Shown in pieces: positions 5,719 through 59,845 of a stretch of 64,000 bases of DNA. Location: the NCBI GenBank assembly GCA_024137785.1, contig JAHRHZ010000075.1, forward strand, positions 23,119,041-23,183,040, in the 5' to 3' direction. The position numbers and the translations under genes are program-made. Positions within the stretch are counted from its first letter, which is position 1. Every line of letters starts with the position of its first letter. This DNA is from Ginglymostoma cirratum. Lineage: Eukaryota. Below the pieces are notes generated by a model. It ran no database searches, was not told where the DNA came from, and worked only from the letters and a program-made list of their open reading frames with translations.

Positions 5719-8476
5719 AGGTTGTAGACTTGCTCAGCGAACTGGTGTTTGATTTCAGACGTTTCGTCACCCTGCTAGGTAACATCGTCGATGCGCCTTC
5801 AGTGAAGTGGTGGTGTTCTGTCCCGCTTGTTATTTATATGTCTCAGTTTGCTGGGGTGGTTGGCATCACTTCCGGTTCTGTTTTTCAGTGGTTTGTATAC
5901 TGGGTGCAGTTCAATGTGCTTGTTAATGGTGTTCCAGTTGGAATGCCAGGCCTCCAAGAATTCCTTGGCATGTCCCTGTTTGGCTTGTGCTATTATGGAT
6001 GCGTTGTCCCAGTCGAATTAATGTCCTTCTTTGTCTGTGTGTATTGAGACCAGTGAGAATTGGTCACGTGTCTTGGTGGCTAGTTGGTGTTAGTGTATCC
6101 TTATTGTCAGTTTTCTTCCAGTTTGGCCTATTTAATGTTTCTCAGTCCTTGCATGGTATCCTGTATATTGCGTTAGTTTTATTTGTTGTGGGTATGAGAT
6201 CCTTTCCATTCCTCAGTAGCTGTCGCAAGGTGGTTATTGGTTTGTAGACCACCCTGATACCTAGGGTCAGAATAGTCTTGTGGTCATCTCGGATATGTCT
6301 CTGATGTACAGTAGGGTGACTAGTGTGTCTGGCCGTGGTGTGTCTTCTTCTTGTGGTCTGTCGCGGAGGCAACGGCAGATTGTGCTTTCTGGGTATCCAT
6401 TCCTTTTAAAAACTCCGTATAAGTGCTCCTGTTCTGCTTTGCGTAATTCTGTTGTTGCTGCAGTGCGCGTTGACTCGTTTGAATAATGTCCTATGCAGCT
6501 CCGTTTGTGTATGTTGGGGTCGTTGGCAGTGTAATTAAGTATCTGGTCTATATGTGTGGTCTTTCTGTATACGCTAGTCTGGAGTTCCCCACTGTTCTGG
6601 TGTTCAACCATTATGTCTAGGAAGGGTAGTCAGTTATTGTTCTTCTCTTCTTTTGTGAATTTTATTCCGGTGAGAATGTTGTTCATGCGTCGGTGAGTTT
6701 CTTCTGGTCTTGTGCGTTTGATAATCAAAAAAGGTGTCATCTACATAGCAGACCCAGAGTTTGGGTTGTATAGTGGGGAAGCACTGTTTATTCTAACCTT
6801 TGCATTATTGCTTCTGCAATCAGTTCTGATAATGGGGATCCCATTGGTGTTCCGTTGATGTGTTTGAATATATAGTTGTTGAAGGTGAAGTGGGTTGTGA
6901 GGCACAGATCCAGCAGTTTCAGGGTACTGTCCTTGATGCTGTTGCTGTCGTGAGATGCCAGCCTTCCTGATTTGTCCAGTGTGGCAATTGTCTCTTTGGC
7001 TAGGTCAAATGTTTATGGATGTAAACAGTGCTGTTATGTCAAAGGATATCATAATCTTGTCCTCTTCTATTCTGGTGTCCTTAATGATGCTGAGGAATTC
7101 TTGGGAGGAGTGGATGGAACGGGTAGCGTTGTCAACTAAGTATTTCGGTTTCCGTTGTAGTTCTTTGGCTAGTCTATATGTTGGTGTGCCTGGTAGTGAG
7201 ACATTGGGTCTGAAAGGGAGCCCTGGCCTGTGTACCTTAGGGAGTCCATAGGAGCGGTGTGTGTTGAATCCCTCTGGCCTCATTTTTTGGTAGTCTGTTT
7301 TGCTGATATCTCCCAAGTTGTGCAATTTCTTCAGGGTTGTTGCAATCTGGTTCTCGAACTGTACTGTTGGGTCTATTGCTATGTGTTGGTAGGTGTCAAT
7401 ATCTACTAGTAGTGTGTTAGAGTCCAATACATTGAGAAAGCTATTAAGGATTAGTATCATGCGTCCTTTGTCCACCGGTAAGATTGTGATGTTTCTGTCT
7501 TTGAGTCTTTTCAAGGCTTTCTTCTCGTGTCGAGACTGTGTTCCACCTACCTTTTCCGCTCAGTGTTGGGACTATCGTCTGTCTGATAGCCTGTTTTATT
7601 TCCTTAAGAGTCTATTCCAGCGCAGCCAGGAAATCAGTTTTTTTGGTGTCTCTGTAGTTATAACTCAGTCCACGTACCAGGACGGTCTTCTCAGTGTCTG
7701 TAAGTGGTCAGTCGGAGATGTTCTTGATTCATGTTTCCGTGCTGTCCGTGCCATTGTTGTGGGGGAGTTTGGATAGTTTTTCTTGTAGGGCTGTTCCTTT
7801 TTTGTTCTGGTATGGTGATGGCTTGTTCCAGTGTGGTTGTCCATTCTTGGTCGGTTGCATTGGAGTTCAAAGTTTTTTGGCAAGCAATTTCCTGCTCGTA
7901 TTTGTGGAGGCGACTGTGACCATCATTAATCATAACCCTTATCATTCTGTGCCCGTTCTGCGCAACTGTTCTCCGTGCCTGTGGATTTTTGATAGGTAGT
8001 TTATATTTTAAGCTTTGTGGTAATACCTGCTTTGGAGGCATTCATGCAGCAAGTACAGTTGCTCGCAGGTCGCACTCCGGCAGATGGTATTTATCTCCCA
8101 CCTGCGGCCAGTTTGAGGGTATTGCGCACGAACAAAGGACACAAATTCAACTGGGGCAACACATCCATAACAGCACGAGCCAAACAGACATGCCAGGGAA
8201 TTCTTGGAGGCCTGGCATTCCAACCAGAACTCCAACAAACACATTGAACTGGACCCTACATACGAACCACTGAAAAACAGAACCAGAAGTAATGCCAACC
8301 ACCCCAGCAAACCGAGGCATATGAACAACAAGCAGGACAGAACAACAATGCTTCACCAGAGACACACTGACAATGTTACCTAGCAGGAATACAAAACATG
8401 TACAATCAAATGAACCGGCTTGGCGAGCAAGTCTACAACCTCATCCACAATCTGAATGACAAATCTTCCCAAAAAC
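5719..8476 (-). mobile_element. Near full-length degraded Penelope-like element (Penelope/Poseidon-like; RT + GIY-YIG) with an inverted terminal arm at ~8125-8476
   Basis: Motifs LPVDKG, YGLPKVH, MISFDITALFTSI, YVDDT, VYRKTTHIDQILNY, IYRIPCKD..IGQTG. 8125-8440 is an inverted copy of 5720-6045. Hammerhead-like cores at 5758-5792 (-) and 8367-8400 (+). Confidence 0.9.
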
Positions 8477-12203: not shown

Positions 12204-13246
12204 TCGTTCCAAGGGCCAACTCCCCCTCCCACTCCTTGGACGACATGTCCATCCTGGGCCTCCTGCAGTGCCACAACAATGTTACCCGAGAGTTGCAGGA
12301 ACAGCACCTCATATTCCGCTTGGGAACCCTGCAGCCCAATGGTATCAATGTGGACTTCACAAGCTTCAAAATCTCCCCTCCCCCGAGCGCATCCCAAAAC
12401 GAACCCAGCTCATCCCCACCTCCCTAACCATTCCTCCCATCTCAAGCCCCACCCCCATCTCTTTCCCACTAACATCATCCCGCCCCCTTGACCTGTCCGT
12501 CCTCCCTGGACTGACCTATCCCCTCCCTAACTCCCCACCCACACTCACCTTTACTGACTCCACCCCCATCTCTTTGACCTGAGAGTCTCCTCTCCACCTA
12601 GCTTCTCCTTTATCCATCTTCTATCCGCCTTCCCTTCTCTCCCTATTTATTTCAGAATCCCCCTCCCCTCCCCCAATTCTGANNNNNNNNNNNNNNNNNN
12701 NNNNNNNNNNNNNNNNNNNNNNNNNNNNNNNNNNNNNNNNNNNNNNNNNNNNNNNNNNNNNNNNNNNNNNNNNNNNNNNNNNTGCAGGAACAGCACCTCA
12801 TATTCCGCTTGGGAACCCTGCAGCCCAAAGGTATCAATGTGGACTTCACAAGCTTCAAAATCTCCCCTCCCCCGAGCGCATCCCAAAACAAACCCAGCTC
12901 ATCCCCACCTCCCTAACCATTCCTCCCATCTCAAGCCCCACCCCCATCTCTTTCCCACTAACATCATCCCGCCCCCTTGACCTGTCCGTCCTCCCTGGAC
13001 TGACCTATCCCCTCCCTAACTCCCCACCCACACTCACCTTTACTGACTCCACCCCCATCTCTTTGACCTGAGAGTCTCCTCTCCACCTAGCTTCTCCTTT
13101 ATCCATCTTCTATCCGCCTTCCCTTCTCTCCCTATTTATTTCAGAATCCCCCTCCCCTCCCCCAATTCTGAAGAAGGGTCTCGACCCAAAACGTCAGCTT
13201 TCCTGCTCGGCCTGCTGTGTTCATCCAGCTCTACACCTTGTTATCT
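12204..13246 (+). mobile_element. Neptune-like PLE 3' fragment (GIY-YIG end, pyrimidine-rich UTR, hammerhead-bearing pLTR), duplicated across a 100-N gap
   Basis: EQHLIFRLGTLQPNGIN; core ctgaagaagggtctcgacccaaaacgtc at 13168-13195; ~12294-12682 is repeated after the gap from 12783. Confidence 0.85.
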
Positions 13247-13254
13247 TGGCCTCA

Positions 13255-15100
13255 TTTGATGATCCCTTAAGAATATCTTCTCTTAGTACTGTTATGTCCT
13301 CCCTTATCAAAAGGGCAACTCCCCTTCCTCACTTACTTGTACTTCTGTCATGCCTGTAGCTTCTCTATCCTGCAACATTGAGCTGCCAGTCCTACCTTTC
13401 TTGCAGCCATTTTTCTGCTATGGCTATAAATATCCCAGTCCCCAGAGCCAATCCATATTCTGACCTCATTTGCCTTACCAGTCAGGCCTTATGCATTGAA
13501 ATAAATGCACTTTAAACCAAAAAAAGTCTTTTCCCTCCCTCTACTGTGCCCCTGGCTATCCTGAATAGTAAACTTGCTCTCAATGGCTAATGCATTTTCC
13601 CCTGACTTCTCAATGGCCCCTCCCTTACTCAGACTCTCATCCACCTGCCAAACTAGTTTAAACTCTCCTGGGTAACACTAGCAAATCTTATCACAAGGAT
13701 ACTGGACCCCCTCTGGTTCAAGCGCAACCTGCCTCTCTTGTACAGGTCACCTCTACCCCAGAAGAGATCCCAATGATCCAAGAACTGAATACCCTGCCTC
13801 CTACACCAGCTCCTCAGCTACGCAGTCATCTGGCCTATCTTTCTATTTCTATCCTCACTGGCACGTGGCACTGGGAGTAATCGAGAAATCACTATCCCTG
13901 CTTTTTAACTTCTTACCTAACTCCGGGACCCCAATCCCTTTGTTTATGAATGTCATTTGTACCAATGTGCACAATGACCTCTGGCTGTTCACTCTTCCCC
14001 CTTCAGAACATTCTCAACCGCTCCGACAACCTTGACCCCAGCACCCAGGAGGCAACACATCATCCTGGGGCCTCTTCTGTGGCCACAAGATCTCCTGTAC
14101 CCCTCACAATTTAGTCTCCTTTCAATATTGCTCTGTCTGACTGCATCATCCCTCTCTACTTTGCTCACAGCATCATTAAATAACAAAGCCACACATTCAC
14201 CTGTGATAACAAGCATGGGGCTGGATGAACACAGCAGGTCAAGCAGCATCATAGGAGCAGGAAAACTTGACGTTTCGGGCCTAAACCCTTATCAGAAAAC
14301 CACACATTTACCTGTTCCTGTTTTCCTGTCATTCCTAAATGTCTTCCACACCTCAAGAATTTAGGTCCTGTCAACTTTAGCCCAGAGATGTCCTGAACTC
14401 TGGCACCACTCAGACAACACAGACATCTGGACTTTTTGCTATAGACAATGGTGTCAATCCTTCTCACTGCCTTGTTCCTTACTTGACCTACATTTTTCTT
14501 ACTCTGTTCTCAAGTGGTTTCCTGCATTATGGTGCCATGCTTAGGTAGCTCACCCTTCCTGCATCTCTCACCCTCATCCAAACAAGATGAAAGACCCTCA
14601 AACCTGTTGGGTAATTGCAATAATTGGAGGGTCTTGTGCTCCTGCCCTCTGTAAATGAGGCAGATAAGGAGACCCAGTCACATTCACCTAGCCCTGAATA
14701 CTTGCCCAATCAGATAGTTGAACCCGAAGTGATGTGACTCCCTCTTGGTACAAAAGAATCCTTGATGCATCCTGATGTCTGTAGCTCAGCTTAAAGTCTG
14801 AGCTGAAGCTGCTTGTACTTTAGACATATATTGCAGATACATACTGGACAAAATGGGTATCAATATTGCAACTGTGACTCATTACCTGTCCACCCAAGTT
14901 TAACATGTTCTAAGGAACTATTTAATTATTGTACTTAGCTTTATATTTATTTATGTTCTTATGTATTTTATTAATATGATTTACAGCTGCTATACCAATT
15001 TGAAGCTCAGGAGTTGAATAAACCTTAATCACTTACCAGATGCTCACCAATTAACCAGCTTATTCTCCTGTAGCAGAGCAAGAATCAATTCCTGGAAGCT
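13255..15100 (-). mobile_element. CR1 5' part: ORF1 SGNH-esterase remnants and start of the ORF2 endonuclease
   Basis: Minus-strand remnants CCLLGAGVK and CCLSGARVQD, GTNDI, WGRGDLYKR..LNQRG. The CR1 ORF1 esterase is established knowledge. Confidence 0.65.
14205..14299 (-). mobile_element. ~95-bp solo hammerhead-bearing PLE terminal unit with TSD
   Basis: Core ctgataagggtttaggcccgaaacgtc (14295-14269); flanks ccacacattcacctgt (14189-14204) and ccacacatttacctgt (14300-14315). Confidence 0.8.
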
Positions 15101-25849: not shown

Positions 25850-27425
25850 AACAGGATAACCCAGATAGTCAAGAAATTTAAATATACGTCAGCACAAAAC
25901 CAAGATGGGTCAAACAGCCCCAGCTTCTATGGACTCCCTAAGCTTCTCAGACCAATAGTCTCCTTACCAGGCACACCTACACACAAGCAAGCGAGGGAAT
26001 TACAACAGAGACTTTAACACCTAATTAGCAGATCCCCATAGCCCAAGAATTTCTCACATAGCTCAGGGACACAAAAATTGACAAGTACGAAATCACGATC
26101 TCCTTCGATGTCACAGCACTACTTACATCCATTGACATACCGTTAGCCAGACAGACACTAGTCACACTACTGGAAGGACCAGGAGCACTGACCCTGAACA
26201 CCAGCAACAACATCAGCAAGGACAAATTACTGAAACTACTAGATTTATGCCTCACAATGCACTTCGCGTTCAATGGCCAAATATACAAACAGATCAACAG
26301 CGCACCGATGGGATTATCCATCTCAGGTCACATCGCAAAAGCAGTGATGCAGAGACTGGACATACAGCCCTTCCTATAATCCAACCAAAATTGTGGATAA
26401 GTTACATGGATGACACATTCGTAATAATCAAACACACAAAAGCAAAAGAAACCCACCAACTTGATAACAGCATCTTTGCAAGCATAAAATTCACTAGAGA
26501 GAGGATGAAACAACACAGCTCCCATTCTTAGATATAATGGTAGAGAGATTAACAGTGATTCCTGACCAGAGTGTACAGGAAGGCCACACACATGGACCAA
26601 ATTCTTCAAAAAGCAACCACACCACCATACACAAATGCTGCATTAAGACACTATTTAAATGAGTCATATCACACTACAACACTCCAGAACTCCAGAGAAT
26701 CGAAGAGGAACACCTGCACAAAGTATTTACTGACAATGGATACCCAAGATGTTTTGTCTGCTGATGCCTACAAAAACAAAACAACAGTTAGAGGACAAGG
26801 TAGAACAGAAGACACTAGCAACTCTACCCTATATCAAAAATATATCGGAAATGAAAACCAGACTCTTTAGACCGTGTAGGATCACGATTGTACATAAACC
26901 TACATCAACACCACGTCAAATGCCAAAGACCCCATGCCAACAGTAAACAGGATATACAGAATCCCATGTAGCGGGTGTAACACACATTACATTGGTCAAA
27001 CAGGGAAGAAACTAACGACCAGGATACATGAACACCAGCTGGCAGTAAAAAGACATGAGCAATACACACAGACAATGAAGGCCATGAGTTCGACTGGGAC
27101 AAAGTAACTATACTGGGACAAGTGAACAACATACATGCAAGGGAATTTCTGGAGGTCTGTTTCTCAACACGGGACTCCATTAACAAACACATTGAAATAG
27201 ACCCCGTATACAAACCACTGCTTAAAAAAAAAAAGACAGAATCAGAAGTGATGAGACCCACCACACCAGAGGATCATATAAATTCGGAATTGAGCAGGAC
27301 ACCAATGCCACAATTAGAAGTTGCACTGATGATGTTGCCTAGAATAGTAATGAAACGTCTGCACACCATGGAACAGCTGGATCGGCGAGCAAACAACCAC
27401 TGAATTATACACAACCTAAACCTGT
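25850..27425 (+). mobile_element. 5'-truncated Penelope/Poseidon-like PLE
   Basis: FYGLPK, ISFDVTALLTSI, WISYMDDTF, YRKATHMDQ, HYIGQTGRKL; hammerhead core at 27326-27359. Confidence 0.88.
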
Positions 27426-31449: not shown

Positions 31450-33845
31450 GTCTTTTGGGCCTTTACCTTATTCTACATACTCAAATGTCTTTATTTTTCA
31501 CCAACTCCATAAAGCAAGTTTCCCACCACAACGTGGAACTCTTCTTCCGCCACCTTCACCTCCATGTCATCTTCTTCGATAAAAGACTCCCAACCACCCT
31601 CCGGAGACCCCTTTTCCCACCTCCAACCTTCCTCCTCCTCTTGGAGGCCCCCTGCCGGCCTCTTACCAGCCCTGGGCCACTTCATTGCCAACACAACATC
31701 AACTGCCTTGATTTCTCCACACGCACCACCCCTCGACCCCACCTCCCCCTCAGCGCTTTACTCTTTCCACACCAATCCCCATTTCACTATCAAACCCGCT
31801 GCAAAAGATGAGGCAGTGGTAGTCTGGAGGATGGACTTCTATACCAAAGAGGCCAAATGTCAATTCTCCAACACCACATCCTCTATCCCCCTTGACCATG
31901 ACTGCACCATGGCCCAGCAGCTCCCACACTGTCCATGATCTCATCGCTTTCAATGACTTCCTCTCTACCACCTCCAGGCTTATAGTCCCCCAGCCCAGCA
32001 CTGTCGGATTCTACCTGGTCCCCAAGATCCAGAACCCTAACCACCCCGGGTGACCCATCATTTCTGCATGCTCCTGCCCAACCCAACTCATCTCTTCCTA
32101 CCTTGACTCCATTCTCTACCCCTTGGTCCAGGCATTCCCCACCTACATCTGGGACACAAACCATGCCCTCCACCTCTTTGGTAACTTCAGGTTCCCTGGT
32201 CACCAGTGCTTCATCTTCACTATGGATGTTTAATTCCTAAATGCTTCCATACCCAACAAGGATGGCCTACAGGCCCCCACTTTTTTCCTCTCCAACAGAC
32301 CCATCCATGTGCCTCACCTCAACAAATTTTTCTCCAATTCTTCCCACTTTCTCCAAATTGACAGGGTTTGCCAGGGACAGTCACATGGGTCCCAGCTACA
32401 CCCACCTGTAGGTCAGTTATGTCAAACAGTCCCTCTTCAGTACGTACACCCTTCTTCCAACTTTTCCACCGTTACATCGATGACTGCATTGGTGCTGCTT
32501 CCTGCACCCAGGCAGAACTGCTCCAGTTCATCGACTTCGCTAACAACTTCCACCCTCAAATTCACTTGGTCTATCTCAGAAACCTCCATCCCCTTTCTGG
32601 ACCTCTCAGTTTCCATTTCTGGGGACAGCTTACCTACTGACATTTACGATAAACCCACATACTCCCATCACTACCTAGACTACACGTCCTCCCACCCTGC
32701 ATCCTGCAAAAACTCTATCCCATTTTCCCAATTCCTCCATCACATCTGCTGTAATGAGCAGACGTTCCACTCCCAAGCATCCCAGATTTCCACTTTTTCA
32801 AACAAACAACGCTCTTCACACCTCCATCGCCCGCCTCCCCACCCTCCCCCACCCAGCCAACTGGCATCCAGGCAGCCCTCCACCACACTTCAGCTCTTAA
32901 CTACCAACACCTCCCCCACAAACATAATAAAAAATGTCTCCCCCGTCCTCACTTTCCACCTCACCAGCCTCTACATCCAATGTATCATCCTCAAATACTT
33001 CTGCCAACTCCAATTAGACCACACCACCTGGAACATCTTCCACTCGCTACCCCTCTCTGCATTCTGCAAGGACCATTCGCTTTGCCGCTCCTCAGTTTGC
33101 GCCTCACTCCTCACCAACCACTCCAACCCACCCGGTACCTTCTCTTGTAACCGTAGAAGATGCAACACCTGCACGCACAGCAACTTCGTCGCCTCCATTC
33201 AAGACCCTAAACAGGCCTTCCAAGTGAGACAGAGCTTCACCTGCATCTCCTCCAACCTAGTTTATTTCATCCAGTGCTCCCAATGCTGTCTTTACATCAG
33301 TAAGACCAAATGTAGACTAGGTGACTGTTTTGCTGAGCATCTCCATCTGGCCAGTAACAGCCAACCTAACCTTCCGGTCACCACCCATTTCAACAGCTCG
33401 TCCCACTCCCCCTCCGACACACCAGTCCTCTGCCTCCAGTGTCGTAGTGACTTGCAACACAAATTTGAAGAACACCACCTTATCTTCCACCTGGGCACCC
33501 TACAGCCCGGAGGACTCAACAGAGTTCTCCAATTTCAAATAACCTTGGCAGTCATCCCTCGCCTCCCTTCCAGCCCTGTCTCCTCCCTTCCATTCCACCT
33601 TCTGACCCTCCCTTCCAGCCACCAACTGGATTCATCCCTCCTGTGAACCAACCAAGTCGTACCTACCACCAGTGTCCACCTAACACCACCATTCCATCTC
33701 CACCCCTTCCCCCATTCCTTTATCTGCAGCTCTCTCTAGCCCCACAACCAGTCCTGAGGAAGGGTAATACCCAAAACATTGACTGAGCTTTTTCTCCAGA
33801 TGCTGCTTGGCCTGCTGTGTTTTTCCAGTCTCCTGTTTGTCTACA
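31450..33845 (+). mobile_element. Degraded Neptune-like Penelope element (RT, Cys linker, GIY-YIG, pLTR)
   Basis: IKPAAKDEAVVVW, FYLVPKI, FTMDV, FHRYIDDCIG, IYDKPTYSHHYLDYTSSHP, CNRRRCNTC linker, VYFIQC..YISKT; hammerhead-like motif at 33749-33785. Confidence 0.9.
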
Positions 33846-36800
33846 TCAAATTCCCTACAGAAAGCGTTCCCTTACAATCACCCAACAGTGACAAACAATG
33901 AATGGTAAACACAACTGTTAATTACTTTAGCTCCTGTATCCCTTCCTGCTATTAAAATCTTATTCATTCTTCAAAAGGGATCATCATATTATACCTTGGT
34001 TTCAATTTACTATTAATTTAATGAATACTTGAATAAGTGAATATGTATTATTTAGAACACATTTACATCTTATAGAAATTAACTTCTCAATGGAAAAAGA
34101 ATCTATATAACGAGTAATTAATTTGTCTAACTATCTGTAATTCTTTTCTGCTTATCTTTTCTAGCTCCAGAATTTAGTACCACCAACCTTCCTCTAAAAA
34201 GATTCAAAATGACATGAGTCAACTCAACACTTTGAATAGCTTCAGCTTATTAAGTGTGCCTGAAAACAGTTGGCAAGGCTTTATGGATTTCAATTAACTG
34301 CGAGATACATTTTAGAGTGGTAGTCGTTCATGCACATTATTGGACAAATCACACGGTGTGCATTTGCTGAACTTGGCTTCTTTCCTTTCAGTTAGAAAGC
34401 CAGACTAACCTCTCCTCAACAGCTGCACCAAATTAGGCTGAGACATGGAATTTAACCACAGTGGGTTCTTAAAACACTTTGGCCTAGGTTTTCTGATCTG
34501 GTTGAATTACTGCCAGCTTAGCTGTAGGCAGATCTGCTACAATTGAGTTTATTTAAATATTTCAGGAGTGCATAGCAGTACTTCTGCAGTCACCAGATCA
34601 TGCATCTCATGACCAAAAAGGAAGTTGCTGCACTATTAGTGTAGAATGACTTGCATCCCTAGAACAAAAGGAGAAAAGGCTTATTCTTTAATTAGGACCT
34701 AAATAGCTGTTCACCCCAAAAGCACCAGATTTGGTATTGTCACCTGTTGTGCAGGAGACTGCTGCAAGGGAATTCTTGCAAAATATTATTCTTCTAAACT
34801 GCAGCCAAAGATCTGGAGGCCAAGTCTAAAATATCATTTACCAACTAAGATATTGGAAAATTCCAGAAAAAAAAATTAAGCAAATCCATTTACACTTCCT
34901 CAAACAAACAGAAGCCAAAGATTGGTACGGTGATTACTTGCCTGACTAGTACTCTTGAGACCTGGCATTCTCCAGTTGAGGTCAAAACCCAATTGATGGA
35001 TGGAAGTGACCTCCTGGTTGCTGACCAGGAACCAGCACACCATCAGATCACCCATCTCTTGAACTCAAGACTGCCAGTTCTCCTTAACAAGAGCTAACGT
35101 ATGGGGCAATAATTGCCCACCCCCTCAAAAATTGCTCTGGGCATGCATCAGCCCCTGATGCAACATGGAGTAGTTTCCAGAAATACTCCTAACATTGGGA
35201 TCCCGATCCCTAAAAAATGAAGACAGAGTGTTGTACCACTTTGGAATTCTCTACCTTAGGCGATGAAGGAGGCTAGGTCAATAAGTAAATTTTAAGGCAG
35301 AGATAGGCAGAATCTCATTAAGGAAAGGAAACAAAACATTAATCAGGCATACGTAAGAATGCACAATTCGAAACACAAGTAGAGTAGCCCTAATCTTACT
35401 AAATGATGGAACAAGATCAAGGAGCTTGAAGGAGGACCACTTCTGCCCCTAATTCATGCATTTTAACACACATGCTGGTTTGACGACAAGCAAATCCAGT
35501 CTTGTACAAACATGGACTACATTGTGGGATCCCATTCACCACATGGATTGAGTAAATTCAAGACTATTAATCATCTTCTTCCTTCAATTAGAGATCAAAC
35601 AAAATGTTGACCTTGCCAGCAACACTACAAATGTTTTAGGAAATAATCCACATATAACATCAGGGCCTAAGTAAACTTCAGCAAAGAGGATATCAAATAG
35701 AGATATGGCAATAGATCTGGAGACAGAAAATTCTATTGAATCGGCTGCAATAATGCCTTAAATCTATTGTGCCTTGCTTGAGTGAAAATTCTTATAATAA
35801 AAGTTGAAAAGTAATGTTTCCTGGATTGCACTAAATATGTGCTGCACAACTGTGGCAATAGTGACCTACAGAAGATTATTAAAGTGGATATAGACTGAAA
35901 TGAAAATTGTAATAGAACCTGAGACATGGAAACTGCTTCTGCTTGCAGTTGGGACTTCATTAAAGCCAAGTAAGTACTTTGTTTTATTAGGTGTGAGCTT
36001 GAAACCAATTCCAAGATATTATAGCATTATTGCTTAGAACCACATTTCTAACCCCTGGATTGTTAACTCAACAGATACAGGTCACCTGAAGATAATATTT
36101 AAAAATTCATGAACAAACATCATTTCTTCAATCAAAAGATATAAACATCAAACTTCCTTCTTATGATAGCTAAATACAGACTATATAAATACTTGCTGTA
36201 AAAAGGTAGATAACACCACAAAGTGCTTAACAGAAACATAAGTCGGAAACAGAAATATCAACAGTCTGGCTAACAGCTTGGTGAAAGCAGCTTCACAGAA
36301 GATTTATTAGCTAAGGGAAAGCAGGTTAAAATGCAGAGGAGTTTACCAGGAACATTGGAGGGAATTCTTGAGCAGGAGTTATCGCACTTTAAAGCGCACC
36401 CATCAATTATTGGCATAGGGGAGGAAGATGATAATGACCAAAAGGTCAGAATTAGTGAAGCAGAATTCAAGGAAAGGTTGTTGCAGGAAAGTCAGGATTG
36501 ATGATTACAACTTAAGTATTGTACTACAGGGAACCACTATAGGTCAACAAAGACAGCAGAAATGGGCAAGAACAACTTAGTGTGTGACAAGAGACTACCC
36601 GTTGCATTTTGGATGAACTGAAGTTTACAGAGTTTGGGAAGCAGCTGAGACAGCATTACAATAGCATCTGAAATAATCCAAGATCCAATATCAAGTAAAG
36701 ATCTTACATATTGCTGGGAGCTACAATGGACTGGGAGAAAAGATTAGATTTTTTGTTTAGAATGAGCTCTTCAAACTGTTACCATCAGAAACAATGAGCC

Positions 36801-38557: not shown

Positions 38558-39440
38558 GAAATAATAAGAACTGCCGACACTTCCGCCACCTGCAATCTGA
38601 TCCCACTAGGAAGGTTACATTTCCCTCCCCACCTTTATCTGCGTTCTGGAGGGACCACTCTCTCCACTACTCCCTCGTCCGCTCCAAACTCCCCACTAGT
38701 CCCACAACCCCTGGCACCTTTCCCTGCAACCGCAGGAGGTGCTACACCTGCCTCTACACCTCCCCCCTCACCTCCATCCCAGGCCCCAAAAAAAAAACCT
38801 TCCACATTAAACAGATGTTCACCTGTAATCCGCTAATGTGGTCTGTTGTATCCGCTGTTCCCGATATGGCCTCCTCTACATTGGTGAGACCAAGTGGAGG
38901 CTCATAGACCGCTTTGTAGAGTATCTACGCTTGGCTCGCAACAAATGACAACACCTCCCAGTCGTGAACCACTTCAACTTTCCCTCCCACTCCCTGGACG
39001 ACATGTCCATCCTGGGCCTCCTCCAGAATCGCAACGACACCACCCGGAAACTGCAGGAACAGCCCCTCATATTCTGCCTTGGGAGCCTACAACCCAATGG
39101 TCTCAACGTGGACTTAACTAGCTTCAAAATCTCCACACCTACAGCCTCATCCCAAGCCCAACCCACCCTCTCATCCCCGCCTCCCTGACATGTCCATCTT
39201 CTCTCCCACCTAGCCGCTCCTCCCACCTCACTGACCAATCCCCACCACTACCTACCTGCTATCACCATCCCACCTACCTTCCCCAGCCCAAACCCACCCC
39301 CCCCATTTATTTCAGAGCCCCCTTCCCCTCCCCCATTTCTGAAGAAGGGTCTCGACCCAAAACGTCAGCTTTCCTGCTCCGTTCCTCCAGATCCACACTG
39401 TGTTACCTCTGACTCCAGCATCAGCAGTTCTTACTATCTC
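38558..39440 (+). mobile_element. 5'-truncated Neptune-like PLE with a short inverted 5' arm
   Basis: GTFPCNRRRCYTC, LYIGETK, EQPLIFCLGSLQPNGLN; core at 39339-39366; ends agaaataataagaactgc and gcagttcttactatctct are inverted. Confidence 0.88.
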
Positions 39441-40295
39441 TGAAGAACCAATGGGCCAGACTGACCTTCTTTTGCCCTGTAAGACTGCTGTGCTTCTACA
39501 ACAGAAGGCCTCACACCTTACAGTACATATACTATACTTGGAGATATTGCAGCATAAACATACCAGAAAGGTACTTGGACACCAAAGAGTTTAAATTAAA
39601 AAGGAAGGATTATATTCTTTGGAATTTTTAAAGGTTAAGTTGGTGACCTGTAAGATCAAGATGCTTATCTACAAAGTCTTTATCCCCAGCATAATTCTAT
39701 ATGTCAACTAAGACAGGCCAATTTACATCTAGCAAGAAAGAAGGCTCAATAATAAACTTCTATCTCTGGTATGCAAGATGCATTCTTAACATCATATGGA
39801 AGGATAACTTTATCAATGGAGTCATCCATTTTGGGCAAACATGCTCAAGCTGATCGTGCAAAGTTGCTCCATTGGCTTGGGCACACTCCTAAGAATGTGC
39901 AGCATGAGAAGTTAGGTAATGCCAAATAACTAGCAGTGCATTCAAAGATGCTGCCAAAAGAGACAAATTTCAGAATATGAAAATCACAATAAGTGGGAAA
40001 CTCTAGCTGAAGATCAAATTAAAGTAGCAGCATGAACTTTGTGCAGGAATTTGCCACCATGATAACACATGTTTTCAGACCACCCAAACAAACATACTTC
40101 AGCCTTTCAGTCAAAAAGGTTATTGTGCAAGATAAAGATTTTTGACACGGGGCAACATCTTGGCATGCACGGAAGATTAACTGCCTAACAAGACCCAGCC
40201 ATAAATGGGCCAATTTCTGTTGGCAATGCACAAGTACTATGTGACAGAGATCAGTGCTGCAGCCTTGACTTTTTACAATTTACATAAAATGAATT

Positions 40296-40880: not shown

Positions 40881-41611
40881 GTCTTACGAAGAAAGTTTAA
40901 GCAGCACATTACATCCATCAGTGGAACAGCTCAAATGATTTTCCCATCAAGTGCACAAGGATGTGAATGCCTGCTTGGGCATGAACAAAGATACATTACC
41001 TTCCCAATTTTATTTTACCATATTTCTCCAATGACATGGTAGTGGCCTTTCGACTAAAGAAATTCTGTCCCCTACCTTGCAAATTCAATCAGATCCAGCA
41101 CCTCTCTCTTCTGATTACTGCTTAATATCCTGACCAATAGTCACTTAAGAGAATCACAAGGCATTATGTTCCACAGTCCTTTACAAGAACATATTCATAT
41201 AGGAACAACACAGCAGTAATGCAGATTAATAAGATATTTGGCACCGCTTTAAGCCGGTATTTTTTGGCCTTGGACGTGATGTGTCACGTTCTTGAACAAC
41301 TACAGTCATTTCGTGCAGGTACACCACAGTGCTGTTTGCAATGATGAAATAGCGATATATGAAGGCAAGCTTTCCTCTATTAACATTCCTCTCACTTGCC
41401 TCCCACACAGAAAACCATGTTTACAGAAGGAGCACTTAAATATCATGTTCTAACTGATACGGGATACATACCATAAGGCATAAGAACTATTCAGCATGCC
41501 AAATAGTACACAAAAATAGAATTTAATCAATTTTCACAATGGCAGAAGTAAACACATTGAATTTGGCACGAACCGTATAACGAGTCTAGAATAAATTTTG
41601 ATAGTTAATGG

Positions 41612-42273
41612 AGATAGTAAGAACTGCCGATGCGGGAGTCAGAGATAACAGTGTGGAGCTGGAGGAACACAGCAGGCCAGGGAGCATCAGAGGAGCAGGA
41701 AAGCTGATGTTTCCGGTCGGGACCTTTTTTCAGAAATAGGCTGAAATGGACCTCATTTCTGAAGAAGGGTCCCGACCCGAAACGTCAGCTTTCCTGCNNN
41801 NNNNNNNNNNNNNNNNNNNNNNNNNNNNNNNNNNNNNNNNNNNNNNNNNNNNNNNNNNNNNNNNNNNNNNNNNNNNNNNNNNNNNNNNNNNNNNNNNNNN
41901 NNNNNNNNNNNNNNNNNNNNNNNNNNNNNNNNNNNNNNNNNNNNNNNNNNNNNNNNNNNNNNNNNNNNNNNNNNNNNNNNNNNNNNNNNNNNNNNNNNNN
42001 NNNNNNNNNNNNNNNNNNNNNNNNNNNNNNNNNNNNNNNNNNNNNNNNNNNNNNNNNNNNNNNNNNNNNNNNNNNNNNNNNNNNNNNNNNNNNNNNNNNN
42101 NNNNNNNNNNNNNNNNNNNNNNNNNNNNNNNNNNNNNNNNNNNNNNNNNNNNNNNNNNNNNNNNNNNNNNNNNNNNNNNNNNNNNNNNNNNNNNNNNAGG
42201 GTCCCGACCCGAAACGTCAGCTTTCCTGCTTCTCTGATGCTGCCTGGCCTGCTGTGTTCCTCCAGCTCCACAC
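41612..42273. mobile_element. Palindromic PLE-terminus element with two hammerhead cores (contains a 400-N gap)
   Basis: Cores 41706-41733 (-) and 41759-41786 (+, intact); TSD ttgatagttaatgg (41598-41611) and ttgatagttagtgg (42274-42287). Confidence 0.85.
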
Positions 42274-42414: not shown

Positions 42415-42656
42415 AAAACCGAAAGAACTGCGGATGCTGTAAATCAGGAACAAAACCAGAAGTTGCTGGAAAAGCTCAGCAGGCCTGGCAGCATCTGTGA
42501 AGAAAAATCAGTGTTAATGTTTCAGGTCCAGTGACCCTTCCTCCGAACTCAATTCCTCAGTTTTGAGGAAGGGTCACTGGACCCGAAACAGTAACACTGA
42601 TTTTTCTTCACAGATGCTGCTAGCCCTGCTGAGCTTTTCCAGCAACTTGTTTTTGC
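42415..42656. mobile_element. Palindromic PLE-terminus element, second subfamily
   Basis: Inverted arms around ~42555; cores 42516-42545 (-) and 42563-42592 (+); perfect TSD caggaaagatt (42404-42414, 42657-42667). Confidence 0.85.
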
Positions 42657-47655: not shown

Positions 47656-48213
47656 GAGATAGTAGGAACTTCAGATGCTGGAGAATCTGAGATAACAAGG
47701 AGTAGAGCTGGATGATCACAGCAGGCCAAGCAGCAGAGGAGCAGGAACCCTGCAGCCCAATGGTATCAATGTGGACTTCACAAGCTTCAAAACCTCCCCT
47801 CCCCCTACCGCATCCCAAAACCAGCCCAGCTTGTCCCCGCCTCCCTAACCTGTCCTTCCTCCCATCTATCCCCTCCTCCCACCTCAAGCCCCACCCCCAT
47901 CTCCTACCTACTAGCCTCATCCTGCCCCCGTGACCTGTCCATCCTCCCTATACTGACCTATCCCCTCCCTAACTCCCCACCTACACTCACCTTTACTGGC
48001 TCCACCCCCACCTCTTTGACCCGCCTGTCTCCTCTCCACCTATCTTCTCCTTTATCCATCTTCTATCCGCCTCCCCCTCTCTCCCTATTTATTTCAGAAT
48101 CCCCTTCCCCTCCCCCATTTCTGGAGGGGGGTCTAGGCCCAAAATGTCAGCTTTCCTGCTCCTCGGATGCTGGTTGGCCTGCTGTGTTCATCCAGCTCTA
48201 CACCCGGTTATCT
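47656..48213 (+). mobile_element. Truncated Neptune-like PLE end with an inverted 5' arm
   Basis: Inverted arm 47656-47746 joined to ccctgcagcccaatggtatc; degenerate core 48121-48148; perfect TSD taggtccaacttta (47642-47655, 48214-48227). Confidence 0.87.
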
Positions 48214-50253: not shown

Positions 50254-50618
50254 AGTTTCCAACTTTAGCACCCAAAGCTCTAGAACTGCAAAGTAAAATG
50301 AAAAGCTATTTTTCATTGATGCTTTAAGTTTACGGGTTTTATATATATCTCCACTGGATGCCATTCTGACAACCACCATCACCTCTATAGTTGGGCAAAT
50401 GTGGGCTGAGATTCAAAACCTGTGATTATTGGCAGACAAAAGTCCTATTTGCTGACAATGCAGAATAAAGCATAGACATTTGGCCTACCATCATTTTCTA
50501 AAAGTAACAAAAGACTAAATGATTTGGTTAATCAGTGACTTCTTTGGCACTAGATTTTATAACAAATCATTGCTTACCACCTTAATATTTCTGGACAACT
50601 CTCCACAATGGCAATTCA

Positions 50619-51263
<645 letters not shown>

Positions 51264-56345: not shown

Positions 56346-56999
56346 GAGACAGTAAGAACTGCCAATGCTGGAGTCAGAGATAACACAGTGTGGAGCTGGA
56401 GGAACACAGCAGGCCAGGCAGCATCAGAGGAGTAGGAAAGTTGACGTTTCGGGTCAGGACCCTTTATCAGAAATTTCAGAAATAAGAAATTTCTGAAGAA
56501 GGGTCCTGACCCAAAACTTCGACTTTCCTACTNNNNNNNNNNNNNNNNNNNNNNNNNNNNNNNNNNNNNNNNNNNNNNNNNNNNNNNNNNNNNNNNNNNN
56601 NNNNNNNNNNNNNNNNNNNNNNNNNNNNNNNNNNNNNNNNNNNNNNNNNNNNNNNNNNNNNNNNNNNNNNNNNNNNNNNNNNNNNNNNNNNNNNNNNNNN
56701 NNNNNNNNNNNNNNNNNNNNNNNNNNNNNNNNNNNNNNNNNNNNNNNNNNNNNNNNNNNNNNNNNNNNNNNNNNNNNNNNNNNNNNNNNNNNNNNNNNNN
56801 NNNNNNNNNNNNNNNNNNNNNNNNNNNNNNNNNNNNNNNNNNNNNNNNNNNNNNNNNNNNNNNNNNNNNNNNNNNNNNNNNNNNNNNNNNNNNNNNNNNN
56901 NNNNNNNNNNNNNNNNNNNNNNNNNNNNNNNNTCGACTTTCCTACTCCTCTGATGCTGCCTGACCTGCTGTGTTCCTCCAGCTCCACACTGTTATCTCT
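56346..56999. mobile_element. Palindromic PLE-terminus element with two hammerhead cores (contains a 400-N gap)
   Basis: Cores 56443-56470 (-) and 56493-56520 (+); same arms as 41612-42273. Confidence 0.85.
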
Positions 57000-57589
57000 G
57001 GTGGCCAACATATCTGCACTTTCCATTAAGGAATTAATAAATAATTCTTAGAAGTTATCTAGTTAGTCAAGCACATGCACAATAACAGAAAATGTAATTT
57101 TGCAAAATCATAAATTATAAATGTCATGTTAGACAAGATCACCGCAGCCCATTTCAAAATCCTGTTGATATTTATACACTTTAAATGTCTATCTTTGATG
57201 CCATGAATCAAACGAAACTGGACTGCCCTCTAGAGTTTTACATACTGTAAATCTGCCCAGAAATTTAATTGCTAGACACTTTGAAAGTTCAGAGAACTGC
57301 CCGATGCTTGCAGAGATTCTAGTGAAAAAAATAAGGTTAATTAATCCTTATGCGGCCATACGTGATTCCTGGCCAAAATGGAGATGGATTAATGATCTCT
57401 GCCAATCATATCCAAGCACCATATTATAATAAAAGTGACAAATTAATTGTATACACAACTGGCATTATAACTAGCCTTCATTCAGTGTAGTTTGGTGGGG
57501 AAAATCACCAGGACTTTCGAGAAGGTGTTGCAACTTCAGTCAAAAGTTGTTTGCTCAAACTTTTTTTAAATAAACTGTAAATCAGCATT

Positions 57590-57684
57590 TTCTGAAGAAG
57601 GGTCTCGACCCGAAACGTCAACTTTCCTGCTCCTCTGATGCTGTTTGGCCTGCTGTGTTCATCCAGCTCCACAACATTTTATCT
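57590..57684 (+). mobile_element. 95-bp solo hammerhead-bearing unit with a perfect 15-bp TSD
   Basis: ctgaagaagggtctcgacccgaaacgtc (57592-57619); ctgtaaatcagcatt at 57575-57589 and 57685-57699. Confidence 0.88.
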
Positions 57685-58684
57685 CTGTAAATCAGCATTA
57701 TTTGTTGTGTAATATATTGTTTGCAGGGAGTCCGGCCACATGTCATGCACCACCTCCAACTCAGTAGCCAGTCAATAATCAGTTTACACTGATCTTTTTG
57801 TGGGGAATAATAATAAACACTTTATCTTTCCATGTTGCCTGTGAAACTCTAACTGGACAAAGCTACTTTAGTGATTGCAATGAACTGTTCAAACCCTTTA
57901 TTCGAAAGTCTAGTTGAAATTGTTGATTTTCATCAAGCACCATTCTCATCCTAAACACTCCTGGGATAAAGATCAAATGAATTCACTAGAGTAGGCATAT
58001 TCTCTAACTTTATTTTGTAGGTGGTTATCAACAGGAAGCCAATACTCTGATGTAGAATAGAATTATATAAATGTCAGGAATACAGACTATAGAAATCCAA
58101 GTACAAAACATTGCTGATCTAATCTTAGTATCTGGCTACACGTATGAAGAAAGGCTGCTTAAATGAAGAGTGCTGTTGGTACCAATGGAATCTCTCAATA
58201 AATAAGCAGAAATATACTAAAAAAAAGAAAAATCAAAACATGATTGATGACGGACTAAAATTTCTGATAGCAAAAATCATTGCACATCAACCTGCTAGGT
58301 TGCATAAGCAATTTACAAGAAAACGTGTCATGAGAATTTGAGTACGTCAAAGAAAGAGATGTTGTCAAAAAGCCAAGTACAGTCTAAGTAGCAGTAGTTA
58401 ATTTGAATCATTAAGAAAGCCACATCATGACCAACTTATAAATGTGTCATAACATGCATAGTTAAAGAAACCAGAATCAGCAATCTAAAGCAGAATTCAA
58501 GTCTTTCATCTTGGTTAATATCGCTTTTCCTAAATATCATAGATATTTCTTCATTGTTTAAAACAATTGCCACTTTCTAAGAGGATTAGTATCAGCCTTG
58601 TATGAGGAAGTAAAGGCACCACAGCCCCATCGTAGGGCTCCTCCACGTTTAACCTGAGGGTCACCATACCTTAGGCAAGGTTTA

Positions 58685-59845
58685 ATCAGTCCACACCAAA
58701 AGCCATTCCCAAACTTAACTCGTCCCACCTACCTGCACTTGGCCCATATCCCTCCAAGGCTTTCGTATTCATTAACTTATCCAAATCTTGTTTAAATGTT
58801 GTAATTGTACCTGCATCCACTACTTCCTCTGACAGTTCATTCCACACACAAACCATTGTGTAAAAAACATTTGCCCCTCGAGTCCTTTCTAAATCTTTCT
58901 CCTCTCATCTTAAAAATATACCCCCTAGTCTGGAACTCCTCCACTCTGTGGAAAATGCCCTTTTTATTCACCTTTTCTTTGTCCCTCATGATTTCATAAA
59001 TCTTAAAGACCACCCATCAACTTCCTACGCTCCAGTGAAAAAAGTCCCAACTTATCCAGTCAATTTTTATATCTCAAACCTCCATTCCTGGCAACATCCT
59101 GGTAAATCTTTTCTGAACCCTCTCCAGTTTAATAATACCCTTCCCATAAAAGGGTTACCAGAACTGCAAAGTACTCTAGAAGAGGCCCTCAAAAATATCC
59201 TGTACAACCTCATCATAATGTCCCAGCTTCTATACTCAACGGTCCAAGCAATGAAGGCAAGCCTGCTAAATTCACCTAGTCTGCCTGTGATGCAAATTTC
59301 AAAGAATCATATACCTGAACTACTAGATCTCTGTTCTACAACACTACCCAGGGCCCTACCTTTAATTGTATAAGTCCTGTCCTTGTTTGTATCACCAAAA
59401 TGCAATACCTCATACTTGTCCAAATATAACTCCATCTGTTGTTCCTCAGCCTATTGATGCAATTGATCAAGATCTCTTTGTAGTTTTAGATAACCTTCTC
59501 ATCAATTCACAATAACACCAAAAAAAAAATCAGCATTTTCTGAAGAAGGGTCTCGACCCAAAACGTCAACTTTCCTGCTCCTCTGATGCTGTTTGGCCTG
59601 CTGTGTTCATCCAGCTCCACAACATTTTATCTCTGTAAATCAGCATTATTTGTTGTGTAATATATTGTTTGCGGGGAGTCCGGCCACATGTCATGCACCA
59701 CCTCCAACTCACTGTCATCTGCAAACTTACTAACCATGCCTCCTATATTCTCATACAAATCATTCATATAAAGTGACAAACAAAAAAGTGGATCACCGCT
59801 AATCACAGGCCTCCAGACCAAAAACCAAAACTCCAGCACCACTCC
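58685..59845 (-). mobile_element. CR1/HER1 3' fragment interrupted by a 185-bp insertion
   Basis: YMNDLYENIGGMVSKFADD breaks at 59711; CR1 sequence resumes at ~59520. Confidence 0.85.
59527..59711 (+). repeat. 185-bp near-identical copy of 57579-57763
   Basis: Two differences seen by eye. Confidence 0.9.

Follow-up and report, generated by a model that had tools for sequence, protein, structure and literature searches.

A truncated Penelope-like element end and its recurrent 5′ boundary beside a minimal hammerhead motif in Ginglymostoma cirratum

A 95-nt insert at 57590–57684, enclosed by perfect 15-bp direct repeats (TSDs) as judged by sequence comparison, was analyzed in a stretch of 64,000 nt of Ginglymostoma cirratum DNA (hereafter the window). 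The insert is very probably the terminal module of an EN+ Penelope-like element (PLE) of the Neptune/Nematis type, reaching from a minimal hammerhead to the nearer RT start and placed by TPRT at a 15-nt staggered break within an AT-rich target. By itself it is ordinary PLE debris. The useful part is its sharp 5′ boundary, and the 57590 copy belongs to the modal class of that boundary. As the likeliest cause of the boundary we propose, with a probability of about 0.5, an RNA that starts at about −4, is primed internally and is copied by run-off. Positions are counted from C3 of the hammerhead CUGA, which is position 0 and corresponds to 57592 in this copy.

The insert and its hammerhead motif

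The window is repeat-rich animal DNA. A PCMT-family coding exon (Pfam PCMT), which we take to be PCMTD1-like, is located at 50616–51263 on the minus strand. The insert lies about 6.5 kb on the 5′ side of this gene, in antisense orientation. The names HE1-like SINE and CR1-like LINE are assumed here for repeats of the window. Coordinates of the insert and its relatives are given in Table 1.

Table 1. Features of the insert and of related copies in the window.
Feature	Position	Strand	Remarks
Left TSD	57575–57589	+	15 bp; terminal Ts overlap the TTT ahead of the core in the parent
Insert 5′ edge	57590–57591	+	−2/−1, or −3 counting the overlap; what is left of the 5′ strand of helix I
Minimal type I hammerhead core	57592–57619	+	CUGANGA, extra nucleotide, helix II, GAAA, palindromic 15/16 positions; cut predicted after 57619
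65-nt segment to the short 3′ end	57620–57684	+	Ends at +92, a putative RT start and the nearer one of the family's two 3′ ends; conserved ATG at 57638
Right TSD	57685–57699	+	15 bp, same letters as left
Local duplicate of 57579–57763	59527–59711	+	185 bp, 98.9%, 2 mismatches; insert, partial left TSD, right TSD, 64 nt of flank
Second short unit, other subfamily	14204–14297	−	5′ end −3 to 0; TSD 16–20 bp, 1–2 mismatches
Fold-back pair of short arms	41611–42273	.	5′ ends −4, −5; one long-tailed; TSD ~13 bp, 1 mismatch; holds a 400-N gap
Fold-back pair of short arms	56346–56997	.	Both 5′ ends −4; 400-N gap; no clear TSD
Fold-back pair, second PLE family	42425–42656	.	5′ ends −4, −5; 11-bp TSD
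Long copy with the same terminal module	12783–13246	+	TATTTAT at −35; initiator-like motif, A at −4
Long copy, long tail, 24-nt internal deletion	38617–39440	+	Reference for contig alignment
Decayed PLE fragment, related family	32234–33850	+	RT C-terminal part, C-x4-C-x2-C linker, GIY-YIG region, core, tail
Long arm joined to an inverted arm	47656–48213	.	Long arm 5′ end −377; inverted arm starts at +32, long tail; perfect 14-bp TSD

The initial annotation had described a 95-nt unit with a perfect 15-bp TSD, consisting of tt, an intact hammerhead core and a tail of about 65 nt. This description held in every part: identical repeats enclose the unit, TT is followed by the core and 65 nt, and by motif all the core letters are kept. 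The 5′ edge is uncertain by 1 nt (−3 or −2), since the last letter of the repeat is T and CUGA follows TTT in the parent. The first three letters of the TSD equal the continuation of the parent at the 3′ junction of the insert. The insert contains no ORF and no poly(A), and consensus patterns gave no Pol III A box or B box in it, as had been claimed. An ATG at +46 is present in the insert, and an ATG at +46 to +51 was found in seven of the eight arms checked, with an in-frame stop in one subfamily. No tRNA gene was found within the 64-kb window. A tRNA-type SINE was ruled out, as A and B boxes are missing and the window has no tRNA gene.

The core reads CUGAAGA (57592–57598), an extra A, helix II (57600–57611), GAAA (57612–57615) and CGUC (57616–57619). 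Helix II has 4 bp, starting with G–C, and a 4-nt loop; a fifth pair would force an impossible 2-nt loop. The palindrome ACGU precedes the predicted cut, which lies 30 nt inside the 5′ edge, in agreement with the distance of about 30 nt noted initially. Since the insert retains the core, it is not simply a 3′ cleavage product, and this candidate was ruled out, as the initial annotation had concluded. Compared with the descriptor of metazoan PLE minimal type I hammerheads (PMC4209133), the 57590 copy has the extra nucleotide between 9 and 10.1 (after A9), G10.1–C11.1 and palindromic 15.2–16.2, and it likewise has no loop III. The hammerheads described there are mostly single dispersed motifs ascribed to truncated PLEs, with some close opposite-strand pairs, as in the window. 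They differ from the 57590 copy in that the latter has a 4-bp helix II and a 2-bp helix I; the accessible text of that paper gives no end positions for single copies.

Every core letter was kept in two of the 12 arms examined, and the 57590 copy was one of the two. The weak stem I noted initially was confirmed: there are two contiguous pairs, short of the usual 4–5 bp. In the long copies of the family, three of four helix I pairs are formed with one mismatch, and the related 33754 copy has five pairs. The fourth pair, which involves A at −4, is formed in 8/12 arms. A scan with Rfam gave no hammerhead match, and the Rfam matches in the window were chance matches to fold-back repeats. The minimum-energy fold of the insert is not the hammerhead (z = 0.73), and two-strand folding of two copies preferred a different duplex over it. 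Across 11 sequences, 88.6% of the 44 helix II cells were paired, which was above all slid controls and was equaled or exceeded by 168 of 500 shuffles; two-sided changes were found in none of the four pairs. The label "ribozyme" for the 57590 core is thus to be read as a motif match. Core position 8 is A instead of G in three of 12 arms, namely 14295(−), 56470(−) and 41733(−). These arms possibly represent a ribozyme-dead subfamily that still moved, or decay.

The 15-mer of the TSD occurs a third time at 59633, because 57579–57763 is duplicated at 59527–59711. The duplicate lies 1.9 kb away inside another repeat, has no TSD of its own and shows short target likeness at both ends. It was rejected as an independent PLE insertion, being a local duplicate without its own TSD, and it appears to be either a product of local templated repair or an assembly artefact. 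The right TSD (57685–57699) resembles the long-tail continuation of the parent, with an empirical P of 0.003 against the tail of one subfamily and 0.11 against that of another. Primer–template pairing with the long tail of the parent at this site is possible. It was not adopted as an explanation, as other junctions have no such likeness.

Relationship to Penelope-like elements

The same module terminates four longer PLE fragments in the window, and for this reason the insert is regarded as a 5′-truncated PLE end, a known product and not a separate element. The four arms (13166, 48119, 39337 and 33754) run far upstream into decayed coding sequence. The frame at 32234–33646 had 4884 protein matches, and six of the seven top matches scanned contained RVT_1 and/or GIY-YIG; the frame itself had no Pfam match. 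A C-x2-5-C-x2-C linker was found in this frame and in all nine top relatives inspected. This linker between RT and EN marks the Neptune and Nematis clades (PMC8557442). The 32234–33646 copy represents a related family, 62% identical to the insert, and the nearer long copies are 84–92% identical.

The window arms have two family 3′ ends, a short one at +92 and a long one at about +125, approximately 33 nt apart. In public contigs aligned to 38950–39550, the 3′ junction peaks at the long-tail end among the 24 of 1653 rows listed. An optional 30–40-bp tail is known in EN+ PLEs (PMC3846280, PMC8557442). In Poseidon of Anolis carolinensis (PAc; PMC11167929), two adjacent internal RT start sites account for two such 3′ ends and define the tail. 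PAc is also like the present case in its uncut RNA template and its AT-rich target with ATT, and the extension of both strands fits the fold-back pairs found here. It differs in belonging to another clade and in having an ORF that starts at helix II. The main text of that paper reports neither an in vivo RNA 5′ end nor a 5′-end peak.

Published 5′-truncated insertions of EN+ PLEs (PMC3846280, PMC8557442, PMC8969392) share several features with the window copies: a module after an RT and GIY-YIG ORF, two 3′ ends, head-to-head inverted arms, TSDs of 11–20 bp, microhomology at 5′ junctions and the C-x2-5-C-x2-C linker, present here in the related long copy. A difference is that truncation is variable in the insertions these sources describe, whereas a sharp peak 3–5 nt before the core was observed here.

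The window contains no full-length parent. A search for close relatives with a full-length ORF, which the ATG at +46 might open, gave 54 matches, all distant, the best having 35–49% identity among the top matches listed. None of 150 proteins matched the tail peptide, searching proteins with the endonuclease part yielded no relative of greater length, and exact-pattern scans of viral contigs and metagenome contigs found nothing. A further PLE family occurs at 5719–8441 and 25947–27361, with its own hammerhead-like core at 27326 and a decayed one near 8367. One of its copies is an inverted-flanked RT fragment, and all three of its arms are long.

The initial annotation had proposed a minimal PLE-mobilised ribozyme retroelement. 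Mobilisation by a PLE stood; the status of an element in its own right was not supported, since long RT/GIY-YIG copies end in the same module and the short copies are scattered over several subfamilies and over two families, each beside long relatives. This spread also argues against a single short master; only two of seven inner branches were well supported in the tree of the arms.

A related proposal is a ribozyme element that is non-autonomous and makes a short RNA of its own, a retrozyme-like monomer, circle or dimer copied by PLE proteins. It is the least probable of the explanations that we weighed for the insert. The clean units of constant length bounded by TSDs (57590 and 14297) agree with it, as do tail-to-core joints in two single contigs among the rows listed. 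Retrozymes related to pLTRs, including monomers, have been described (10.64898/2026.07.22.740005), and metazoan non-LTR retrozymes (PMC7229834, 10.64898/2026.07.22.740005) are similarly short and non-coding, with a type I hammerhead and kinship to PLE ends. Those sources describe tandem repeats, typically of 150–450 bp, with canonical ribozymes and circular RNAs. Unlike them, the 57590 insert occurs as a dispersed monomer between TSDs; its core is minimal, and it is collinear with autonomous-type ends. A tandem array of the unit was found neither at the insert nor elsewhere in the window, and head-to-tail ribozyme units of the retrozyme kind were likewise not found there. The proposal is further opposed by the short arms, which are 86–92% identical to long copies in several subfamilies and two families, and by the lack of Pol III boxes and of a favoured hammerhead fold. 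A circle ligated at +27/+28 predicts a tail upstream of the core, which was seen in none of eight short arms.

The recurrent 5′ boundary

The 95 nt matched 16 other window sites at an E value of 0.001 or better, giving 14 arms from 10 insertion events. The duplicate at 59538 and the gap-repeated pieces at 12294–12682, 42198 (read as continuing 41757) and 56933 (read as continuing 56491) were dropped, and three long arms of the third, unrelated PLE family were left uncounted. Eight of the 14 arms, from two families whose upstream letters differ, started at −5 to −3. They comprise the two TSD-flanked singles (57590 and 14297) and six fold-back arms. The remaining arms start at +13, +32, −377 and farther upstream. 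Counted by event, 5/10 fall within 3 nt of sequence; if ends were spread uniformly over 100 nt, this would have a P of at most 5e-4.

Head-to-head inverted pairs account for four events, three of them with TSDs of 11–14 bp. The base at −4 was kept in all six fold-back arms, and none of the six matched the parent past −5. The pairs that hold four of the six arms have extra letters at the junction, indicating that target microhomology does not set the 5′ end of fold-back arms. The spacers between the arms (41736–41756 and 56473–56490) contain the cDNA-end motif AAAT several times over, as if by slippage or templated end-joining. At the N gaps 41798–42197, 56533–56932 and 12683–12782 the flanking sides overlap or repeat; these gaps are probably false and derived from fold-back or repeated PLE ends.

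Contigs from four public runs (X1, X3, X12 and X20; three organisms) were aligned to the long copy at 38950–39550. The runs held shares of 0.33 (X1), 0.19 (X3), 0.17 (X12) and 0.07 (X20) of the sampled words of the locus, and their sources may be relatives and not this species. Loose 5′ ends with unrelated flanks were found at −3 in 345 of 6245 (X12), 460 of 7530 (X3) and 157 of 2052 (X1) partly aligned contigs. This was 66–92 times the uniform share, with a flank agreement of 0.35–0.37 and a median of 209–255 nt. Position −3 was the only 5′ junction of this kind in X12, X3 and X1 among the 24 of 1653 rows listed. In X20, a run with a divergent family and 418 contigs aligned, the −3 junction with unrelated flanks was absent among the rows listed. 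Because of the 24-nt deletion in the reference, neither 5′ ends that fall on the cut site (+28) nor 3′ ends of the short kind can show in these counts. The initial annotation had made its reading depend on recurrence of the boundary, which was found in 8/14 arms and in three of the four contig sets.

Single contigs of X1 and X12 return from the long-tail end to the start of the core after 12–27 intervening letters (reference 39332–39441). These joints are possibly rare tandem stubs.

Published work already covers single minimal hammerheads left by truncated PLEs, as well as tails and inverted pairs. What this analysis adds is the count of 5′ ends in public contigs and the geometry of promoter motifs. 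An earlier report of sharp clustering of PLE 5′ ends at helix I was not found in the openly available literature searched.

Possible causes of the boundary

Two causes named in the initial annotation fit poorly. A circular or dimeric template gives no reason for a stop at −3/−4, and the window has no tandem array. An RT stop at the core would be expected elsewhere: RT copies RNA from 3′ to 5′ and would meet the 3′ edge of the core first, so a stall by the ribozyme is expected near +31 and not at −4.

All four long copies carry an initiator-like YYANWYY at −6 to 0 with A at −4, against a background of 0.8–1.5% per position. Two of the four have TATTTAT at −35, which is 31 nt upstream of this A, and the other two have weaker variants; TATTTAT is the majority form in the public contigs. 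The subfamilies differ farther upstream and converge in sequence from −38 onward. These elements were read against the usual initiator and TATA consensus sequences and the distance that normally separates them. They were looked for once the boundary was known, and three of the four long copies belong to one family. A TATA-plus-initiator arrangement has been proposed for a rotifer pLTR (PMC3846280). For PAc, shortening the template at its 5′ end gave a shorter insert in vitro, and ribozyme cleavage was unnecessary (PMC11167929).

The run-off chain would begin with a GIY-YIG/RT protein cutting the target, as the TSD and PMC11167929 suggest. RT would then start inside the RNA at about +92 or about +125 from C3, consistent with the two 3′ ends seen here and with the internal start of the anole element in vitro. 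Retention of the core in the insert shows that uncut RNA was copied through the ribozyme. An RNA beginning at about −4 would make the cDNA end at that point; the boundary is observed, and the promoter is its presumed cause. At this step a pLTR promoter, with the TATA-like motif at −35 and the initiator-like A at −4, would start the RNA at the first base of helix I, and priming at the 5′-proximal start site would give a run-off cDNA of 96–130 nt. The cDNA end would finally join the target via one to four Ts, as at the observed junction. The 57590 stub, which has no TATA-like motif, would be a dead-end product and not a master element.

Several observations count against run-off at −4. The contig mode among the rows listed sits at −3, X20 shows no such junction among its rows listed, and the TATA-like motif is imperfect in two of the four long copies. 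Two of the 14 arms start downstream (+13 and +32), and a cleaved template would account for the +32 arm. Pairing in helix I, and not initiation, may be what keeps the A at −4. Penelope of D. virilis has a TATA-less internal promoter; its start precedes by 46 nt an intron of 75 nt, which reaches to helix I (PMC2377424, PMC4209133). This layout puts its start well upstream of the ribozyme and so speaks against the chain.

The main rival, a real possibility but clearly the weaker one, is a joining bias. A longer template would be copied, and the cDNA would be trimmed or resolved at the TTT/ATT before CUGA, the last AT-rich patch before the C-tract, which would pair with AT-rich overhangs or be nicked by an ATT-preferring endonuclease. 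The contig mode of −3 is the exact start of the TTT, both TSD-flanked single copies share Ts with the target, and the flanks are 67–76% AT. The anole element prefers ATT (PMC11167929), and rotifer PLEs have microhomology at 5′ junctions (PMC3846280). By eye, two fold-back spacers resemble bits of −38 to −27, which may mean longer templates. However, the fold-back arms end at −4/−5 without target overlap, even in the family with AGTT and not ATTT, and no unrelated-flank junction was found at the longer AT-rich stretch (−35 to −27) among the 24 of 1653 rows listed. If joining bias were the cause, the boundary would be a detail of repeat annotation, and the stubs should be labeled as PLE ends and not as SINEs or retrozymes.

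We consider it unlikely, though slightly less so than a retrozyme-like RNA, that the template end is processed at about −4 by a nuclease or a splice-type cut, or that RT is blocked there by a bound protein or the C-tract. The 5′ edge of helix I is where the D. virilis intron ends (PMC4209133) and where the boundary falls, and the C-tract lies just upstream. However, an AG acceptor is absent at −4 in the family of the 57590 copy, a stall caused by the structure of the ribozyme is expected 3′ of the core, and a second family with other upstream sequence has the same boundary.

If the boundary is the template's 5′ end, as in the run-off chain, genomic copies alone would map the transcription start of a vertebrate PLE. 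The thousands of solitary minimal hammerheads in genomes would be explained, and a direct test of what the PLE ribozyme is for would become available. A wider reading is tentative and, in our judgment, rather doubtful. PLE transcription would start exactly at the first base of the hammerhead, about 95–130 nt upstream of the element's own RT start sites, so that uncut linear RNA primed at the 5′ site would yield only a run-off stub. Full-length copying would need a start site behind the ORF. Transcription running on into the next pLTR could supply it, as could paired cleavage by ribozymes with circularisation, and the ribozyme would serve to switch between abortive and productive copying. The abundant stubs would then record in the genome where the RNA begins and that templates were uncut.

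Behind the same C-tract, X20 has a different core, and the A at −4 is initiator-like there too (5 contigs).
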